Positions 18,582-44,670 of a stretch of DNA of 64,000 nt are shown piece by piece. A program made the position numbers and the translations under genes. Position 1 is the first letter of the stretch, and each line of letters begins with the position of its first letter. Under the pieces are notes generated by a model. The model was given only the letters and a program-made list of their open reading frames with translations. It was not told the DNA's origin and made no database searches. The DNA comes from Escherichia phage vB_EcoM_IME537. The stretch lies in sequence record NC_054921.1, one strand, 5' to 3'.

Positions 18582-18755
18582 TTATGTTTGTATAATATCA
18601 CTTACTTCTGATAGCATATTTTTATATGAACGAGTTAAAGCTGATTTAAGCACGCTGTATCTATCAGGAAATTTACCATGTTCATTATAATAAGCTATTG
18701 CTAATTCACGGACTGCCTTTTCAGCAGTCTCCATATATTCTTTACGCTTTGTCAT
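18582..18755 (-). CDS. small hypothetical protein
   Basis: 57 aa from ATG 18755. Confidence 0.35.
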
Positions 18756-19059
18756 TTTCTTCTCGGTCAAATCGATGTTTACAATGACGACATTTATATT
18801 CAAGCTCTGGTTTACGCCAGTTAATCAATTGGACCTGTTCAGTACCACATTTTGGGCAGTTCGGAACATTCTTAGAAGCCCTTTCGCGGCGTTCAACCAT
18901 AACCATAATGGCATCCCAAGCAGGAGGTTTAAAGTCTAGATCGTCACAGCCATGAATCTTTCCACGCATTTCTAAATCGTCTTCTTCACCAGCCATAATA
19001 ATTTTAATTAGACTGGAATTACTTGAAGCTGCAATATCTTCTAATAAGCGCTTTTTCAT
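18742..19059 (-). CDS. hypothetical zinc-ribbon protein
   Basis: 105 aa; CPKCG...CRHC. Confidence 0.5.
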
Positions 19060-19985
19060 TTCAATACCTCAATAGCATTACGTAAACCATTTGCTTTGGC
19101 AGTTAAAGCCTTAAGAACTTTAGTATGCTCTTCAATCTGTTTTTCAACTTCAATTAAGCGTGTATTAAGATATTCGCGTTCTTCACTCAGGTTATCAATC
19201 TTTTCTACTTTAGGTTCTTTTACAACTGGCTTATATGTATTAGGGTTCTTCAGTTTAATTAGAATGCGTGAACTGTATAACATTGAACCATTATCTTCGG
19301 TTTCGTCATACATTTCCACTACGTCCATCATCTCCACCATCGTGCAGAGTTTATAAGACAACGAACGAATAGTTTTGTTATGCTTATTAATTTCTCTAGC
19401 TGTCATGGTGCCGAGATTACGTGAGTAATAATAAGGAACCTGGATATTAATTAATACTGATGAACCACCTGGCTTGTGTGTTACTTCATCAGCAATAACC
19501 CAGTCCTTAACATGAACTGTATTTGTACGGTCATCGCCCGCGGTAAATAGTTTACGAGCATGCTTAAAAAGCATATTCACTTGGTCATTGAATTGACAAG
19601 CGAATTTATCAGCAAATTTAGTTTCAGGAATGGTAGATAACCAATCAGCCAAATGGGTCTTTTTAACATCGTTAACAATAGTAAATTCAACCAAATCGGT
19701 TATAGATGTCGCAGATTTAATGAAGCTCGGCTTCATAAAGTTTTTAATGTTATCACTAGCTACAGTAGAAGATAACAGACGAGAACGTTTAAACCATTGA
19801 AGCAAATTGCCTAACGAATGAGAATAAGCGTTTTGAGTATCTTTACAGATATGATTTTCCTGGCCAACATATTGAAAGAAATCACGAAGAATATTATTGA
19901 TTACTGCTCTGTGCCCAATCTGATAATTACGGTGTTTAGTAATAAGACTATCAAAATAATCAATATAATGTTTACGAGTTTTCAT
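19056..19985 (-). CDS. paralog-family protein 1 with C-terminal coiled coil (function unknown)
   Basis: 309 aa; C-terminal heptad-rich tail; related to the next three genes. Confidence 0.6.
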   Translation of the reverse strand: MKTRKHYIDYFDSLITKHRNYQIGHRAVINNILRDFFQYVGQENHICKDTQNAYSHSLGNLLQWFKRSRLLSSTVASDNIKNFMKPSFIKSATSITDLVEFTIVNDVKKTHLADWLSTIPETKFADKFACQFNDQVNMLFKHARKLFTAGDDRTNTVHVKDWVIADEVTHKPGGSSVLINIQVPYYYSRNLGTMTAREINKHNKTIRSLSYKLCTMVEMMDVVEMYDETEDNGSMLYSSRILIKLKNPNTYKPVVKEPKVEKIDNLSEEREYLNTRLIEVEKQIEEHTKVLKALTAKANGLRNAIEVLK

Positions 19986-20037
19986 GTTCTTCTCACTTGG
20001 TTAATGATTTATACTCCGAGCCATCCTTGGCTTTAAA

Positions 20038-21039
20038 TTACTTAATTAACTGTAAAGCTTGTTCAAGACGATCCAGGCGATTAACAGATTCTTCCCAAAT
20101 CCTTTTAGCCTGCTCATATTCTTTCTGTGCTTTATTAGAAATTTCTAGAACTTCTTTATAAGCTTTTTCTAGTGCAATAACTTCTGGACGAATTTCTACC
20201 GGTTCAAGTGAATCATCAAGACATTCCATTAGTTCCTCAAGGGTAGTTTCTTCTTTAGGAGTATTCACAATTTCATCACATTTTTGTTGGTAAATTTCTT
20301 TATCAGTCGGTGAGTACGCGCACTTTACTTCACGGAGACTAACTACAATTTTATATCCTTCCCAACCGCACATATTCTTAAAAGGATAAGTATGAATATT
20401 TTCTACCGTTTCCATACAAAATAATGCAGTCTCTAATTGACGAGTTATATCACTAGCAATTGAGAAAAATTTATTAATGTTCTTTTGATTAGCTTCTGGT
20501 GTAAAAAATCCATAATTCACAAAAATAGCTGCTTTATTTTTATCAAGTTCATATTCTTTTATGATAATCATGTCAGAAGCCCAAGGATGAATTTGACGAT
20601 AATCACCATAGCATAATTTAGAAGCTGATTTTAGAATTTGCTTTTTGAAAAGTCTGAAATTACTAATCCAACGACGAGTAAAAATATTCTCAGGGTCTTC
20701 TTTATTATTAAGATGATAAGAATTAACATCACCGAACCAATTATATCCTACTACATCTTTGGTTCGTTTAATTTCTTTCCCAAAATTACCAAGAATATCC
20801 TGATTAACTAAATATGAAAGAAGACGAGAACCTTTAAAGGTTTCCTTAATATCACCTTTATCTTCGCGACTAGAAATTTTATGAACTTCATGAATAAATT
20901 TGCTGGAAGAAACAATGCTTACATCAATATTATTGAGCCATTGATTGATAATGGAAATAACGTTATTCTGACTAGACATAGGTTTAACTTTATCATCAAT
21001 AACGCTATTAAATGATTTGATATATTCGTTACGAGTCAT
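20038..21039 (-). CDS. paralog-family protein 2 with C-terminal coiled coil
   Basis: 333 aa from ATG 21039 with SD GAGGAG; shares FRLFKKQILKSASKL-type core. Confidence 0.6.
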   Translation of the reverse strand: MTRNEYIKSFNSVIDDKVKPMSSQNNVISIINQWLNNIDVSIVSSSKFIHEVHKISSREDKGDIKETFKGSRLLSYLVNQDILGNFGKEIKRTKDVVGYNWFGDVNSYHLNNKEDPENIFTRRWISNFRLFKKQILKSASKLCYGDYRQIHPWASDMIIIKEYELDKNKAAIFVNYGFFTPEANQKNINKFFSIASDITRQLETALFCMETVENIHTYPFKNMCGWEGYKIVVSLREVKCAYSPTDKEIYQQKCDEIVNTPKEETTLEELMECLDDSLEPVEIRPEVIALEKAYKEVLEISNKAQKEYEQAKRIWEESVNRLDRLEQALQLIK

Positions 21040-21096
21040 ATTAATCTCCTCAGTAGAAAGTAAGAACATTATACCACATCCTTGTGGTAAAGTAAA

Positions 21097-22119
21097 CTAG
21101 TTCAGTGCATTTAGTGCATTGTTCAGTTTAGAACGTTGCTTCGTGAGATTTTTGACTTTTTCTTGAGCTTTTTCTAGCATCTTTTCAGCTTCTAGCACTT
21201 CATTAGTTGCTTTAACGAGTTCATCATCTACTGCCTTGATAGACTTCTCAATCGCATCTGCATGCCATTTTTCAACAGGTTTAAGACTCGGATTTTCAAT
21301 AGGAAGAAAATTCACTTTATTGAATTTCCATGCATCTTTATTACCTGAACTATACATCCAAAATTTAGGATCGTTTGATGAGTAATTGGATAAATTTAAG
21401 TTATCTTGCACTTCCTGCTTTTTCTCTTGTGTGACTTCGTCCTTTCTCAAAAAATCGTATTTAAATGAAACGATCATATCAAGTTCATATGTTGTTGTAT
21501 GTTCCCAATTTCGCTCAAAATGAGGTAAAATCTTAGACTGAACAGCGGCAACAACATCCATATACTTAAATGCTTCTGTTAACTGCGATTTAAGGCATTC
21601 ACAAATTGAAAGAGAATTTTTTGTATTAGGTTTAAAGCTAATTCGTGCAGTTCTATTATTTTCTTTTAATGGTCTTACTTCCATCTGAAGAGTATAACCA
21701 TCAAATTTCAGATTCTTTAAGTTAATATCAGAACCTTTTAATCGACTCGCAGTTGATAAAATTTGTTTTAATTGTTTACGGAATAGAGCAATAAATCTCC
21801 ATTCAATACGATAATGATTTGGATTGAAAAATCCAGATGATAAATCGACCTTACTTTGACCGACGCCTTGAACAAATAGAGGATTTTTATAATCAATAGT
21901 TTTACAGAAATCGGTGAGCTGCTCACGAGCCGTCATTTGCGTAATATACCCTGCTTCGCTAAAATTACGCACCCATTCACCGCTATTCGTATACTTAAAG
22001 TGATGAATAACACGATTAACTTTATCAGGGTCTAAATTATTTTCACACAAAAATGTCATAACATCACGGGTATAGCTGGCATTACGAACCATATCTTCAA
22101 TTTGAGAACGAGTTTTCAT
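21097..22119 (-). CDS. paralog-family protein 3 with C-terminal coiled coil
   Basis: 340 aa; SD AAGGAA; core FRKQLKQILSTASRL. Confidence 0.6.
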   Translation of the reverse strand: MKTRSQIEDMVRNASYTRDVMTFLCENNLDPDKVNRVIHHFKYTNSGEWVRNFSEAGYITQMTAREQLTDFCKTIDYKNPLFVQGVGQSKVDLSSGFFNPNHYRIEWRFIALFRKQLKQILSTASRLKGSDINLKNLKFDGYTLQMEVRPLKENNRTARISFKPNTKNSLSICECLKSQLTEAFKYMDVVAAVQSKILPHFERNWEHTTTYELDMIVSFKYDFLRKDEVTQEKKQEVQDNLNLSNYSSNDPKFWMYSSGNKDAWKFNKVNFLPIENPSLKPVEKWHADAIEKSIKAVDDELVKATNEVLEAEKMLEKAQEKVKNLTKQRSKLNNALNALN

Positions 22120-22127
22120 GGTGTTCC

Positions 22128-23015
22128 TTAAGATTTAAGTAAATCAACAATTTTAATTAACTTTTCACGCTCAGATTTAGCTTTACTACTCAATCCAGAT
22201 AGTCTGAAAATTTCATCATCATATTGCTGAATAGAAATATTTAGCTCTTCAATTTGCTTATTAAAATAATCAATTTGTTCAGAATGTTTTTCGTTACTAC
22301 GAACTGGTACAGGTTTTGTAGGCAATTTAGTTGAACTGGATTCATCCGGGCGATAAATTAAAATACAACTTGAACCAATCGGACATTTAGCACCAGACAC
22401 ATATTCTAATGTTCCGGCTTCTTTTAAAACTTCAAAAGCTAAACAGAGATGATGACCCATATTGGCATAATCTGTAGAGTGAGCTCTGATGTAATAATCA
22501 TCTCCACGAGTACTAAATTTAAAGCATTTAAGGTCTTCTGTATTATTGGTCTTAAAAATCATTTGTTTATCTAGACCTTTAGCTAATCGAGCGCCTAATG
22601 CTAATAATCGTCGTTGATTTTTCCACAAATCCGCAATCATTTGATCGAATGATAATTTTGGCATTAGTCGACCATAAAGGTCATATCCTTTATTATAATT
22701 ACGAAGGATTTCACTCGCATTAATGCGAGACAACGCTCCAATTTTATTAAGGGCTTTCATAATGCGTTTAGATAAAAGCATTCCAGACCCGTTTGGTCGC
22801 TGTAAATGTTTTTCTAATCCAAATCCAATATCAACTTTAAACTTATCTAAAATTTCGGCATGAACATCTTTATCAATAACATTCAAATCCAAAGTTGGGT
22901 TAAATCTATGAAAAAATTTATCTGGCTCTCCACGACGAAGTACAGTCCATTCATTTGATTTTTTATTAACTAAAGATTTAATTACTGCATTGACATTATT
23001 AATTGCTACTGACAT
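22128..23015 (-). CDS. paralog-family protein 4 with C-terminal coiled coil
   Basis: 295 aa from ATG 23015 with SD GAGGAA; core NQRRLLALGARLAKG. Confidence 0.55.
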   Translation of the reverse strand: MSVAINNVNAVIKSLVNKKSNEWTVLRRGEPDKFFHRFNPTLDLNVIDKDVHAEILDKFKVDIGFGLEKHLQRPNGSGMLLSKRIMKALNKIGALSRINASEILRNYNKGYDLYGRLMPKLSFDQMIADLWKNQRRLLALGARLAKGLDKQMIFKTNNTEDLKCFKFSTRGDDYYIRAHSTDYANMGHHLCLAFEVLKEAGTLEYVSGAKCPIGSSCILIYRPDESSSTKLPTKPVPVRSNEKHSEQIDYFNKQIEELNISIQQYDDEIFRLSGLSSKAKSEREKLIKIVDLLKS

Positions 23016-23022
23016 ATTTTCC

Positions 23023-23430
23023 TCACTCAATTTCAATTTTACTAAATACACAGAATATGATTGAACAGACTACATAAGCACCGCACACAGATTGAACTAA
23101 TACCATCCCAAAGAACCAAACAATATTATCAAACAGTGTCTGTTTTACGTCGAAAGGACGTAAACTTACAGTAATATTATCACCTTTTTCTATTGAAGAA
23201 TACATCTCTGGGGAAATATATTCACTAAATCTATAACCGTCTTTGAGTTCATATACAGCAATAAACGATAAACTAGACCCTTTTCCTTGTGTTCCTGTAA
23301 TGGTATTAACTACAGTAACATCATAATCTTTATAATGCATATAATCATTAATTGCGTAATAACCGTATGCAATTGCTATACATAAACAACATATCAATAA
23401 ATTCAATCTTTTAATTATCAACTGTTTCAT
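23023..23430 (-). CDS. membrane protein
   Basis: 135 aa; hydrophobic N-terminal and C-terminal segments. Confidence 0.5.
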   Translation of the reverse strand: MKQLIIKRLNLLICCLCIAIAYGYYAINDYMHYKDYDVTVVNTITGTQGKGSSLSFIAVYELKDGYRFSEYISPEMYSSIEKGDNITVSLRPFDVKQTLFDNIVWFFGMVLVQSVCGAYVVCSIIFCVFSKIEIE

Positions 23431-24458: not shown

Positions 24459-25178
24459 TTAGGATTCTTCTAAATGTCTTTTCTGAAAAGTTGATACCAT
24501 ACTACGATACGGTTCATTTGGATATCCGTGTTTTATAGCTTCCTTTGTAAATTTTCTCCATCCATATTTAGTTTCTTTCCAAAGCTCGAATAATTCATCT
24601 TCATACTGCCATATAGTTAAATGAGAACGCTTTGCAGCTTTAATTCCATTAATATGCTTTTCTTTTACTGCAGGATTGCTTAGTTTCTTTTTAATAATAT
24701 TACTAACTTTTCTAACAAAAACTGGGTCCTTATATCGTTGCGAAGTTTTTATTGAAGTGTTTAATTTAGCTTCCGGCGTGGATGTAACCTCTTTCATCTT
24801 TTTCTTCATATGCTGTATATGATTAGGATTTTTCCATAAATTTATAGAATGCTTTTTGCATTTTATCCTAGTTTCATCTGCAACCTTTCCTCCTTCACCC
24901 CCGTATGACAGGTTAACACAGTTTTTTCCATATTTCAATTTACCTGCCATGATATATAATATTTCAGCTTGTACCATTTTATCATAATTATCAAAAACTT
25001 CTAAAACCGTTTTTGATAATATGTGGTCATTTGACACTTTTACACGTTCTATATAATTTCCACTACCAACATACGAATCATTGATGTTATTAGTTATATG
25101 TCGACCATAATAGTATTTCTTAATACCTGTCTTTAAATTTAATATTTCAGTTTTATAGATAGTAAAATATTTTTTCAT
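24459..25178 (-). CDS. free-standing Seg-family GIY-YIG homing endonuclease
   Basis: 239 aa; N-terminal GIY-YIG-like motifs and GGEGG, as in the segB product in this window. Confidence 0.65.
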   Translation of the reverse strand: MKKYFTIYKTEILNLKTGIKKYYYGRHITNNINDSYVGSGNYIERVKVSNDHILSKTVLEVFDNYDKMVQAEILYIMAGKLKYGKNCVNLSYGGEGGKVADETRIKCKKHSINLWKNPNHIQHMKKKMKEVTSTPEAKLNTSIKTSQRYKDPVFVRKVSNIIKKKLSNPAVKEKHINGIKAAKRSHLTIWQYEDELFELWKETKYGWRKFTKEAIKHGYPNEPYRSMVSTFQKRHLEES

Positions 25179-26212: not shown

Positions 26213-26476
26213 TTATTTTAATGTTCGCCAAATTTTTACTGCTTCGCGACGAGATACTTCTACAGCTCCAAGTTCTACAGCTTTTTGGCGTCGCCGAGCG
26301 TGTAAGTCATAATGTTTAATGCGTTTATCTTGAAACCAAGAACGTTTCATTCCTATTGCTTCTGCCATTTCGTGAAGCTCTTCAATATCTCCATCAGTGA
26401 ACATATGACAATTTTTAGTTGGATGACCGCGAAGTTTCCATCCATGATTCATTAAAACATCTACGTAAACTGTCAT
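26213..26476 (-). CDS. small conserved protein, DUF4031-like (recalled motif only)
   Basis: 87 aa; GWKLRGH...EELHxxAxxIG...WFQ...HYDL pattern. Confidence 0.45.
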   Translation of the reverse strand: MTVYVDVLMNHGWKLRGHPTKNCHMFTDGDIEELHEMAEAIGMKRSWFQDKRIKHYDLHARRRQKAVELGAVEVSRREAVKIWRTLK

Positions 26477-26622
26477 TGATTCTTCTCCAAATAAGTTTCG
26501 ATAATTTTCTGAGCGAGATAAACTGCATTATCTTCAGTTGCATCTTCTAAGAAACTTTCAAAACACTCTGAAATTTCTTCTGTGTCAATCAACTTTTTTA
26601 CTTCAATTGGTGTAATTTTCAT
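26473..26622 (-). CDS. small acidic hypothetical protein
   Basis: 49 aa from ATG 26622; the track's N-terminal extension spans a hairpin. Confidence 0.3.
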   Translation of the reverse strand: MKITPIEVKKLIDTEEISECFESFLEDATEDNAVYLAQKIIETYLEKNQ

Positions 26623-26687
26623 TTTGTTTTTCCGTTTAAGTGTTTGTTTTGATAGTTGTATAGTACCATAAGCCCGAAGGCTCCCTA

Positions 26688-27701
26688 TCATTTATAATAA
26701 CTTCGGTGGTTTTCAAGATAGACCTTCTCAAGGAAGTCATCCCAGAAACTCATGTCTACTGTTTTAGGCATACCGTTCTTAGAAGCTTCAGTAGATGCTG
26801 CTTCTACTTGATCGACCACATCTTCCAAAAACTCTTGAACCGTTTTAAATGGATGTTTACCCAACTTCACGTCAAGAATAAATGGAGCGTCTTGAAGTGG
26901 ATAAACCAAGTCACCAGTTTTGTAAATTTCCAATAGTTGAAGTCCACCACGACAAGCATGGCTCAGAGCTTTCCAGTCAATACCTTCGTTGGCTTCGGCC
27001 TTACGGGCACGTTCACCATATTCAGCATCTAATTTGTTCAGTGACTGCTTAAGCTCAATAAGAGAAAGCGTTGTCTGATATTTACGACCCAACACAGTGT
27101 AGAACATTTGCGGGCCTGTTTTCTCATAATTATGGAACACCCATTCACAGAACTCGTTTTCTGGAAGACGATGCTTAATATCTTCAACTTTAGTGCGACG
27201 AAGTCTATCAGGGATTCCTTCTTGATAGTCGACCCACTGGTCAGGGATTTGATTAACTACTTTCAATACATCACGTAATGCGGCCAAACGAGAACCCTTG
27301 ACACCGTATTTAGAAGCTTGCTTACGGACATATCCTAAATAGGATTTCATGTTAGTCGTATAAAAACGAGAACGGTTGTCTTGAATAAACTTCCACACAT
27401 CAGGCAAATCAGATTTAACCACTAGCTCAGGTGGAGTGTGAAGCATATCTAATGCTACAGTTTCACCATCTGCTGCTAATTTAAAGAAATACTTAAGACT
27501 GTATAGTTCATGGTCAATATCATCTTTAGTGTTTTTAGATGATGTGTTGTTAGTGTTTTTACTCATGTGCTCTTTAACGTTTCCAATAAGAATATCACGA
27601 GCAGGAGGAACAAAGATTTCTTTAAAATCTACATCAGATTCTGGTGTAGAAGTTCCATAAAGATGACTACCAAAATAACTTTTCATTACTGTTTTCATCA
27701 T
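26688..27701 (-). CDS. Pol-beta-superfamily nucleotidyltransferase, specificity unknown
   Basis: 337 aa; N-terminal GS-x10-DVD motif (GSHLYGTSTPESDVDF) and a downstream acidic residue (ALDMLH). Confidence 0.55.
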   Translation of the reverse strand: MMKTVMKSYFGSHLYGTSTPESDVDFKEIFVPPARDILIGNVKEHMSKNTNNTSSKNTKDDIDHELYSLKYFFKLAADGETVALDMLHTPPELVVKSDLPDVWKFIQDNRSRFYTTNMKSYLGYVRKQASKYGVKGSRLAALRDVLKVVNQIPDQWVDYQEGIPDRLRRTKVEDIKHRLPENEFCEWVFHNYEKTGPQMFYTVLGRKYQTTLSLIELKQSLNKLDAEYGERARKAEANEGIDWKALSHACRGGLQLLEIYKTGDLVYPLQDAPFILDVKLGKHPFKTVQEFLEDVVDQVEAASTEASKNGMPKTVDMSFWDDFLEKVYLENHRSYYK

Positions 27702-43313: not shown

Positions 43314-43389
43314 TGGTCGAGGCAGTAGGGATCGAACCTACGACCTAGGACTTAGAAGGTCCTTGCTCTTCCTTCTGAGCTATGCCCCG
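43314..43389 (-). tRNA. tRNA-Arg: tRNA-Arg (anticodon UCU), CCA encoded
   Basis: hand-folded cloverleaf; T-arm GGTTCGATCC; anticodon loop CTTCTAA. Confidence 0.8.
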
Positions 43390-43392
43390 TAA

Positions 43393-44058
43393 TTAAAATT
43401 TCATTTTTCGACCTTTAAACCATCCTTCTGGAATTGGGTCAGTTTTCTTAATACGTTTAGAAACTTTTTCATCTAATGAATGAATCCACATCATACCAAA
43501 TTGGGAATTCTTTTCTCCTTTCTGGTGATTATTTTTAGCGTGAATTTCTTTCATTTTATTAATAGTTTCAGGAGTATGATGCTTATTTAAAAATCTGCTA
43601 TTATTTAAAAATTTTTCCTTGTATTCAGGAGTTGACCACAAACGTTTAAATACATTTGAACCAATTTTACGATATTTTTCTTGAAGTAAAATATCATTTT
43701 CAAAACGTGATTTAAACGATTTAGCTCCTTTTAAGCTAGCATCTTTCTTCTGGTTTAGCATCCCAGGAATATTTATATGGTCCCATCCACCTTCACCGCC
43801 AAGTTTTAAATTATACACATCTGGTCTATTTAAAAACTCTTCTGTGACAATATTTTTCTCGGCTTCAAGCATAGATTCTTTATCATCAAAATACTCTAAT
43901 ATTTCTTTAGAGAAATTTTCTATACCATACTTGTCTTGGGCTCTTTTTAATAATTTACCAGAACCCATATATCCATCATCTAAATTTTCGGTAGAATGCA
44001 CACCAATATAAATTTTATTATTAATTTTATTTGTTATTTTATAAGTGTAATGGAACAT
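43393..44058 (-). CDS. segB: GIY-YIG homing endonuclease SegB
   Basis: 221 aa; YTYKITNKINNKIYIG...GGEGG; embedded in the tRNA cluster as in T4. Confidence 0.85.
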   Translation of the reverse strand: MFHYTYKITNKINNKIYIGVHSTENLDDGYMGSGKLLKRAQDKYGIENFSKEILEYFDDKESMLEAEKNIVTEEFLNRPDVYNLKLGGEGGWDHINIPGMLNQKKDASLKGAKSFKSRFENDILLQEKYRKIGSNVFKRLWSTPEYKEKFLNNSRFLNKHHTPETINKMKEIHAKNNHQKGEKNSQFGMMWIHSLDEKVSKRIKKTDPIPEGWFKGRKMKF

Positions 44059-44099
44059 AAATATCTCCTATTTCTAAGAGTATTTATGTTCCCAAAATA

Positions 44100-44171
44100 T
44101 GGCCCTGGGTGGAATTGAACCACCATCTGGCGATTATGAGTCGCTTGCTTGAACCTTCCAGCTACAGGGCC
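44100..44171 (-). tRNA. tRNA-Ile: tRNA-Ile (anticodon CAU; lysidine-type assumed by T4 gene order)
   Basis: cloverleaf; T-arm GGTTCAATTCC; anticodon loop CTCATAA. Confidence 0.7.
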
Positions 44172-44177
44172 TTGATA

Positions 44178-44250
44178 TGCTGATTGACGGAATCGAACCG
44201 CCGACATCCTCATTACAAGTGAGGTGCTCTACCTACTGAGCTAAATCAGC
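44178..44250 (-). tRNA. tRNA-Thr: tRNA-Thr (anticodon UGU)
   Basis: cloverleaf; T-arm GGTTCGATTCC; anticodon loop CTTGTAA. Confidence 0.8.
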
Positions 44251-44257
44251 GAAATTA

Positions 44258-44344
44258 CGGAGGCGATAGGATTTGAACCTATGAGTCGCCGGAGCGACTG
44301 CCGGTTTTCAAGACCGGTGCATTAAACCACTCTGCCACGCCTCC
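44258..44344 (-). tRNA. tRNA-Ser: tRNA-Ser (anticodon UGA), long variable arm
   Basis: 87 nt; anticodon loop CTTGAAA; T-arm GGTTCAAATCC. Confidence 0.8.
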
Positions 44345-44346
44345 AG

Positions 44347-44420
44347 TCTCCGCGGCAGGATTTGAACCTGCGACATTCTGCTCCCAAAGCAGACGCTCTA
44401 CCAAACTGAGCTACACGGAG
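44347..44420 (-). tRNA. tRNA-Pro: tRNA-Pro (anticodon UGG)
   Basis: anticodon loop TTTGGGA; T-arm GGTTCAAATCC. Confidence 0.8.
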
Positions 44421-44432
44421 TAAATTAAATTT

Positions 44433-44504
<72 letters not shown>

Positions 44505-44509
44505 AAATT

Positions 44510-44596
44510 TGGTGCGAGAAGTGGGACTCGAACCCACAAGGAAATCATTCCGCAGCATTTTAAGTGCTGTGCCTTTACCAATTTGGCCATTCTCGC
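44510..44596 (-). tRNA. tRNA-Leu: tRNA-Leu (anticodon UAA), CCA encoded
   Basis: 87 nt with long variable arm; anticodon loop CTTAAAA; T-arm GGTTCGAGTCC. Confidence 0.8.
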
Positions 44597-44597
44597 G

Positions 44598-44670
44598 CTG
44601 GGAATAAAGGACTCGAACCTTTGCATCCTGGAATCAAAATCCAGTGCCTTACCAACTTGGCTAATTCCCA
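44598..44670 (-). tRNA. tRNA-Gln: tRNA-Gln (anticodon UUG)
   Basis: anticodon loop TTTTGAT; T-arm GGTTCGAGTCC. Confidence 0.8.

Follow-up and report, generated by a model that had tools for sequence, protein, structure and literature searches.

The nrdC.3 to nrdC.6 genes of T4-like phages as a likely superfamily of coiled-coil proteins that includes the anti-Dsr1 gene nrdC.5

Locus and gene identities

Even in T4, the most thoroughly studied phage, no function is known for about half of the genes. Here we analysed a window of 64,000 nucleotides from Escherichia phage vB_EcoM_IME537 (NC_054921.1), a Tequatrovirus (T4-like) genome, and in it four consecutive minus-strand genes, nrdC.3 to nrdC.6, which a first-pass annotation made from the sequence alone had described as a tandem array of paralogues in an accessory region. 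All four open reading frames (ORFs) were verified, in agreement with that annotation: nrdC.3 (member A) at 19056..19985, encoding 309 amino acids (aa), nrdC.4 (member B) at 20038..21039, 333 aa, nrdC.5 (member C) at 21097..22119, 340 aa, and nrdC.6 (member D) at 22128..23015, 295 aa. Each is preceded by a Shine-Dalgarno-like sequence (ribosome-binding site), and two of the four proteins start with MKTR, as had been noted. The mechanical ORF of nrdC.6 extends to a GTG at 23051; the ATG at 23015 agrees with orthologues of 295–296 aa and is taken as the start. Matches to the 4-kb stretch were found in 658 phage records, almost exclusively of Tequatrovirus (the top match is Salmonella phage pSe_SNUABM_01, 97.7%), and at least 80% of it is covered in 461 phage records.

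In T4 (NC_000866, 48933-52893), nrdC.3, nrdC.4, nrdC.5 and nrdC.6 occur in matching order and orientation, flanked by nrdC.2 and nrdC.7 and downstream of gene 49, pin and nrdC, where they are annotated as hypothetical proteins. By synteny and identity, the four window genes are one-to-one orthologues of these T4 genes. The identity to the T4 proteins is 62% for nrdC.3, 91% for nrdC.4, 94% for nrdC.5, which is also equal in length and position, and 95% for nrdC.6, the last over 259 aa. A comparison with the T4 nrdC.x genes had been proposed together with the first-pass idea of a counter-defence or host-takeover module, to which clear identity with characterised T4 genes of known function was set as the counterargument; the identity with T4 genes holds for all four members, the known function for nrdC.5 only.

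Existing classifications keep the four proteins apart. PHROGs splits them into phrog_1435 (nrdC.3 and nrdC.4), phrog_2351 (nrdC.5) and phrog_2257 (nrdC.6). With membership of Pfam DUF7235 (PF23882) taken as a score over the Pfam gathering threshold of 30 bits, nrdC.5 matches this family over its full length with 435.8 bits, and nrdC.3, nrdC.4 and nrdC.6 gave no match to it at E up to 1, which places them outside the family as Pfam defines it. In precomputed tables, cluster representatives 96% identical to nrdC.3 carry PF26897 (nrdC.3 type), and those 96% identical to nrdC.6 carry PF26899 Phage_T4_Y05B (nrdC.6 type); in our local Pfam copy, neither of these two families matched nrdC.3, nrdC.4 or nrdC.6 directly.

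Two further observations concern individual members. The nrdC.6 of the T4 reference NC_000866 (12067-12894 of locus L002) has 275 aa, with a frameshifted C-terminus that has lost the coiled coil described below. Full-length nrdC.6 (281–331 aa) is found in the window, in T4_ev151, in the HIDEN-SEQ T4 stock (891 bp) and in the examined Mosigvirus, Dhakavirus and Gaprivervirus orthologues, and the short version probably reflects a mutation in the reference strain or an error in sequencing. Just upstream of nrdC.4, the 57-bp gap contains a strong sigma-70-like site on the minus strand (21068-21096; TTTACT, 17 nt, TATAAT, with a TG extension), a candidate that could be a T4 early promoter within the array.

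Shared architecture

The four proteins have a common layout, in which a variable helical N-terminus precedes two conserved helices and a small sheet-helix-sheet core, and a flexible linker then leads to a C-terminal coiled coil of 47–56 residues. The N-terminal 50–90 residues do not align between paralogues, in line with the divergent N-termini of the first-pass description. Beyond them, a joint alignment contains four conserved blocks, the columns of which are mostly hydrophobic across the family. Block 1 is a helix with the pattern G.(l/i)(S/T)...A...L..F. Block 2, the second conserved helix, has the pattern F....(F/L)......(I/L)L...A(R/K)L..G. Block 3 is a helix with L..L..A...(M)(D/E).V, and block 4 lies in the tail, with the end pattern L..A(l/i)..L(K/N).

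Block 2 corresponds to the shared core motif of the first-pass annotation, and the motifs quoted there are present and align in the same columns as one another and as FNDQVNMLFKHARKL of nrdC.3. In nrdC.3 the conserved helix motif is KFACQFNDQVNMLFKHARKLFTAGD (aa 127-151, 19533..19607, minus strand, as are all features of this section), which falls into the same columns in the four paralogues and in the intermediate sequences described below. Its counterparts are RWISNFRLFKKQILKSASKLCYGD in nrdC.4 (aa 123-146, 20602..20673), placed by the joint alignment, RFIALFRKQLKQILSTASRLKGSD in nrdC.5 (aa 108-131, 21727..21798), placed by profile and joint alignment, and QMIADLWKNQRRLLALGARLAKGLD in nrdC.6 (aa 125-149, 22569..22643). 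Within the nrdC.6 family, the latter stretch varies least, with invariant columns N133-N157 in alignment A1.

For the tails, a coiled coil was defined as a continuous heptad repeat with hydrophobic residues at positions a and d over at least 4–5 heptads. All four tails qualify, each in one unbroken register, with 79–94% hydrophobic residues at a/d vs. 17–26% elsewhere. The segments are aa 263-309 of nrdC.3 (19059..19199; 86% vs. 21%), aa 285-333 of nrdC.4 (20041..20187; 79% vs. 26%), aa 285-340 of nrdC.5 (21100..21267; 94% vs. 17%), modelled by AlphaFold2 as a single helix (284-339), and aa 242-295 of nrdC.6 (22131..22292; 80% vs. 18%), modelled as two helices (241-273 and 277-294). The tails are therefore true heptad repeats as first described, but slightly longer than the approximately 40 residues then estimated.

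Evidence for common ancestry

Pairwise comparison by BLASTP was significant only for nrdC.3 and nrdC.4 (24% identity over 270 aa, E=4e-8), the remaining pairs being weak or absent, and since four of the six pairs are not significant, BLASTP taken alone is insufficient. We therefore relied on profiles. Family alignments were assembled from database homologues and from orthologues of Gaprivervirus VR26, Dhakavirus VR5 and IME281, and Mosigvirus JS09, and the profile sets were cleaned of a natural nrdC.5::nrdC.3 fusion (P0056) and of weak cross-matches, which had distorted the E-values. With the cleaned profiles, hhalign joined nrdC.3 to nrdC.4 (E=4.8e-13, 231 columns), nrdC.4 to nrdC.5 (E=1.8e-6, 234 columns) and nrdC.3 to nrdC.5 (E=2.5e-4). 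Direct alignment of the nrdC.6 family with the other families was not significant (E=0.16 with nrdC.4 and E=0.17 with nrdC.5), and intermediates were needed to connect it.

Such intermediates came from a HMMER search of the nrdC.6 profile against 1.84 billion representative proteins, which returned 14 proteins in all. Among these, P0204, P0205 and P0207 are remote full-length relatives encoded by single-copy genes at the same locus in distant T4-like phages, and a fourth single-copy gene of this kind is present in Kanagawavirus IME523. The intermediates have a motif of the nrdC.6 type, R.FLA.GARLC.G..R.M.FK, which is also similar to ASKLCYGDYRQI of nrdC.4, and a tail start of the nrdC.5 type (HYAD.[IM]E.SI vs. 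WHADAIEKSI). They aligned with the nrdC.5 family at E=1.4e-12 (247 columns) and with the nrdC.6 family at E=1.7e-14 (213 columns). When they were added to the nrdC.6 profile, it matched the nrdC.5 profile at E=1.6e-8 and the nrdC.3/4 profile at E=3.3e-8 (202 columns). In addition, hmmsearch with the nrdC.5 profile found the intermediate P0205 at E=8.5e-12. A search of viral contigs with the intermediates found no further related loci.

It might be argued that these similarities are an artefact of composition, produced by an AT-rich genome and coiled-coil tails, and that the four genes are unrelated, as the four BLASTP pairs not significant on their own and the three separate families held by PHROGs and Pfam would suggest. 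However, the profile alignments span 200–250 columns inside and outside the tails, with E-values of 1e-6 to 1e-14 when intermediates are included, whereas controls for each hhalign pair (15 column shuffles and one reversal) never gave E below 0.02. Blocks 1 and 2 also align without the tail (nrdC.5 51-129 to nrdC.6 87-146, E=1.6e-8), neighbouring proteins with helical tails do not match, and structure-based and sequence-based searches converge on the same distant relatives (see below). The artefact explanation is thus effectively refuted. As to the neighbours, the family profiles gave no match to nrdC.1, nrdC.2, nrdC.7–nrdC.10, including the coiled-coil-rich nrdC.8, or a homing-endonuclease ORF, and this test ruled all of them out as family members.

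Taken together, these comparisons make it highly likely that all four genes form one superfamily and descend, as distant copies, from a single ancestral gene. The pairwise and profile comparison proposed at first pass thus bears out the paralogous family at the level of profiles, and by BLASTP for nrdC.3 and nrdC.4 only. The family that joins all four genes and their single-copy relatives is the new part of this work, whereas the function of nrdC.5 is already published; in the literature, we found no paper treating nrdC.3–nrdC.6 as one family.

Predicted structures and fold searches

An AlphaFold2 model of nrdC.6, built with 29 diverse homologues, reached a mean predicted local distance difference test score (pLDDT) of 76 and a predicted template modelling score (pTM) of 0.63. 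In this model, a helical domain (1-150) holds blocks 1 and 2 and is followed by a hairpin (165-178), a helix (186-199) and a second hairpin (204-221), and then by a disordered linker and a C-terminal helical hairpin (241-294). The model of nrdC.5 came from a mixed-paralogue alignment and was not used in fold searches. It is of low confidence because the usable homologues are all at least 81% identical, but its elements follow the order seen in the nrdC.6 model, beginning with a long helix and continuing through three strands, one helix, two further strands and a linker to a long terminal helix.

Searching viral predicted structures with the nrdC.6 model, Foldseek matched nrdC.6 orthologues and proteins of 300–335 aa from Pectobacterium phage PM2, Enterobacter phage IME523 and three Acinetobacter phages. 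A protein of 370 aa from Serratia phage PS2 was a weaker match (E=2e-3); no entry named nrdC.3, nrdC.4 or nrdC.5 was among the matches. The IME523 and PM2 proteins were retrieved independently by tblastn with an intermediate. Sequence searches of the PDB with all four proteins and the nrdC.6 profile gave no match, DUF7235 on nrdC.5 was the sole Pfam match among the four, and NCBIfam returned nothing informative. PADLOC models likewise gave no informative match, the sole one being between the nrdC.4 tail and a coiled region of BrxC (12.7 bits). On these searches, no enzyme signature or known fold appears assignable to the family, and the first-pass statements to this effect, and on the accessory nature of the region, are upheld.

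Copy number and evolution

The number of family copies varies among T4-like phages. Kanagawavirus and two metagenomic T4-like phages have one, Mosigvirus has three (nrdC.6, nrdC.5 and an nrdC.3-type gene), Dhakavirus and Gaprivervirus also have three (nrdC.6, nrdC.5 and an nrdC.4-type gene), and Tequatrovirus has four. The ancestral gene appears to have been located beside nrdC.2. In genera with only one of the nrdC.3-type and nrdC.4-type genes, it is that gene which adjoins nrdC.2, and because each type can occupy this position, the fourth copy of Tequatrovirus may have been gained by recombination rather than by duplication in place. In the single-member phages, a conserved protein of 256–259 aa is encoded slightly upstream of the family gene (L011 5994-6773; L012 6301-7071; L013 3250-4020); it has no recorded Pfam family in L011 and L012 and did not match the family profiles.

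Between genera, the identity is at most 29% for nrdC.5 and 32–52% for nrdC.6, compared with 74–78% for the neighbouring nrdC.10. Within the matching phages, nrdC.3 falls into allele classes with 93–99%, 74–78% and about 61% identity to the window, and the window allele is nearer to that of Mosigvirus phages such as ST0 and JS09 (about 74–78%) than to that of T4 (62%). Between the window and T4, the synonymous divergence (dS) is 0.64 for nrdC.2 and 0.94 for nrdC.3 (18742-19985), compared with 0.09–0.24 for the flanking genes. The high dS of nrdC.2–nrdC.3 therefore points to an imported recombination block of foreign ancestry, and indicates that the divergent nrdC.3 would be an imported old allele and not the product of rapid adaptive change.

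The gene-wide ratio of nonsynonymous to synonymous divergence (dN/dS) between the window and T4 is 0.13–0.31 for the four genes and 0.00–0.04 for gene 49 and nrdC. By this measure, the four genes are under purifying selection, relaxed relative to gene 49 and nrdC, and with every dN/dS below 1, positive selection was ruled out gene-wide. The term "diversifying" used at first pass thus fits the fast divergence between genera and the variable copy number, but not the selection acting on the genes. All four are kept intact in hundreds of genomes.

Some genomes depart from this arrangement. In phage CJY920 (L005), nrdC.4 is missing; in ACG-C40 (H175), only the last 72 residues of nrdC.3 match, and in Pinarejo (H145), only the last 47 residues of nrdC.6. 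In P0056, from 167-kb metagenomic contigs, residues 146-272 of nrdC.5 are joined out of register to nrdC.3 from its residue 137 onward, a natural deletion of nrdC.4. In Shigella phage Sf25 (P0057), nrdC.6 has an 83-residue internal tandem duplication.

Known function and proposed mechanism

Srikant, Guegler and Laub (eLife 2022, PMC9391042) reported that a T4 clone with compensatory deletions had become unable to infect ECOR17, that deletion of dsr1 in ECOR17 restored infection, and that dsr1 on a plasmid shielded MG1655 from the T4 deletion clone. T4 nrdC.5 alone, supplied on a plasmid, restored plating of the deletion clone on MG1655 with ECOR17 dsr1. The text of that paper does not give the extent of the deletion in the 'evo 3' clone and proposes no mechanism for nrdC.5. 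Dsr1 is a SIR2-domain protein with a sensor, common to Avs7, that recognises phage major capsid proteins (PMC13581612). Given its 94% identity to the T4 protein, with 6% of positions differing, the window nrdC.5 quite probably has the same anti-Dsr1 role.

Other genes of the same block are also directed against host defence: gp49.2 of T6 inhibits OLD (PMC13096335), and nrdC.1 of T4 inhibits Septu (bioRxiv 10.1101/2025.11.20.689424). For nrdC.3, nrdC.4 and nrdC.6, we found no paper on function in the literature. In the supplementary tables of a T4 transposon screen, nrdC.3–nrdC.6 are listed as non-essential (bioRxiv 10.1101/2025.11.20.689424). By analogy, from their paralogy to nrdC.5 and from the adjacent proven inhibitors, nrdC.3, nrdC.4 and nrdC.6 may have an anti-defence role as well. 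The counter-defence function suggested at first pass was thus already on record for nrdC.5, through its T4 orthologue and Dsr1, and would extend to the other three by this argument; nothing ties the family to receptor binding, which had also been suggested.

We hypothesize that the four proteins are early, stoichiometric inhibitors of host immune proteins, oligomerised through their coiled coils, with each paralogue having its own target, and we give this interpretation a probability of about 0.55. Oligomeric, stoichiometric binding is favoured because there is no enzyme signature, the conserved columns are mostly hydrophobic, the coiled coil is long and nrdC.5 has been described as an early gene. 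In this model, the proteins would be produced early in infection and act by binding, without enzymatic activity, and each would block a different immune protein of the host. NrdC.5 would engage the SIR2 NADase Dsr1 ahead of the late capsid protein that triggers it, most likely by filling the Dsr1 sensor or by keeping Dsr1 inactive. NrdC.3, nrdC.4 and nrdC.6 would act likewise on other defence proteins or on Dsr1 variants, and the targets would probably be tuned through the variable N-terminal region and the surface of the core. It is very improbable that the proteins are instead enzymes, for example kinase-like or NAD+-restoring, which undo the damage of defence rather than bind defence proteins.

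Several points weigh against our interpretation, beginning with the intermediates required to connect nrdC.6. The AlphaFold2 model of nrdC.5 is poor (pLDDT 44), its terminal helix (284-339) being the sole confident part, and the proposed common fold accordingly draws on one good model, that of nrdC.6, and on profile alignments. Within the genus, the gene-wide dN/dS does not point to an arms race. A published phenotype exists for nrdC.5 alone, and the direct binding of nrdC.5 to Dsr1 is our inference. Finally, the rows available from the T4 screen tables give nrdC.3, nrdC.4 and nrdC.6 no significant effect (bioRxiv 10.1101/2025.11.20.689424).

Some of these points would suit an alternative in which only nrdC.5 is an anti-defence gene, and the other three have drifted to unrelated functions outside immunity, for instance in taking over the host or regulating its proteins, or serve as redundant back-ups on the same target. 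A published phenotype for nrdC.5 alone and the lack of significant effects in the available screen rows are what this would predict; the paralogues are very old, with at most 24% identity and ample time for a change of function, and natural phages exist without nrdC.4 or with mere remnants of nrdC.3 or nrdC.6. However, all four genes persist intact under purifying selection in hundreds of genomes and are placed among proven inhibitors, and patchy loss combined with strong divergence between genera is the usual pattern of host-specific accessory anti-defence genes. We regard this alternative as possible, though on balance unlikely.

Alternatively, the similar tails might bring the four proteins together in a single hetero-oligomeric complex that performs one function. 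Their tails share the end pattern of block 4 and are of similar length, and the genes are adjacent and co-oriented. However, plasmid-borne nrdC.5 alone sufficed for rescue (the text of that paper is silent on the other three genes in the clone), related genera have only one or three copies, and natural Tequatroviruses without single members exist, so that such a complex appears improbable.

Separate inhibitors with separate targets, as we propose, could also be imagined in a narrower form, in which the family consists of dedicated blockers of Avs7-type capsid-recognising sensors (Dsr1, Avs7, and fusions to HEPN or other effectors), a different sensor for each paralogue, again as coiled-coil oligomers. 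We consider this distinctly doubtful; if it were true, the copy number in T-even phages and their exchange of alleles would follow the set of sensors present in the hosts.

Anti-defence genes in the nrdC region will be no surprise to T4 specialists, and it is the paralogy that is the new lead, as it turns three anonymous ORFs beside a proven anti-Dsr1 gene into specific candidates for immune-evasion factors. The conserved scaffold of two helices, a small sheet and a coiled coil offers a basis for mapping specificity. The single-copy relatives take the family beyond Escherichia coli phages and provide natural variants for studying the silencing of Dsr1-type sensors. Knowing which individual members a therapeutic phage carries or lacks may make its host range on clinical strains rich in defences easier to predict.

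Neighbouring features

Between nrdC.9 and nrdC.10, the window has a 239-aa ORF on the minus strand (24459-25178). The T4_ev151 annotation calls it a homing endonuclease, and the T4 reference lacks it at this position; it had no Pfam match at E up to 0.01. Further on, the gap separating nrdC.10 from nrdC.11, about 530 bp long, is taken up by two minus-strand ORFs of 87 and 72 aa (26213-26691). In T4 and T4_ev151 the gap measures only about 115 bp, which makes the additional stretch an insertion in this phage. Eight tRNA genes (Arg, Met/Ile-CAT, Thr, Ser, Pro, Gly, Leu and Gln) are located at 43314-44670 on the minus strand, as in the T4 tRNA region.

Comparison with known systems

The closest known system is T4 NrdC.5 itself (DUF7235, PF23882; anti-Dsr1), which the window nrdC.5 resembles in sequence (94%), length, position and a full-length PF23882 match. 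By comparison, nrdC.3, nrdC.4 and nrdC.6 are distant homologues of like architecture that differ in their family assignments (phrog_1435, phrog_2257, PF26897 and PF26899).

A similar outline is known for DSAD1, a phage protein that counters DSR2, a SIR2-domain NADase activated by a structural protein of the phage; DSAD1 represses the activation of DSR2 by the tail tube protein. DSAD1 has no detectable sequence or fold similarity to the family, and is a functional analogue of nrdC.5 without detectable relationship.

Within the co-oriented block from gene 49 to nrdC.11, the family is accompanied by gp49.2 (anti-OLD), nrdC.1 (anti-Septu) and Pin (a Lon inhibitor), which are dispensable too. Like nrdC.5, gp49.2 and nrdC.1 each inhibit one host defence system. 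However, all three proteins are unrelated to the family in sequence, are smaller (about 80–160 vs. 295–340 aa) and single-copy, and lack a coiled-coil tail.

The single-copy relatives, by contrast, share the locus, length, motifs and coiled-coil end of the window family, and match both the nrdC.5 and the nrdC.6 profiles. They comprise the genes of Kanagawavirus IME523, Pectobacterium phage PM2, Edwardsiella phages PEi20/26 and the metagenomic P0204, P0205 and P0207, and differ from the window in having one copy where it has four.

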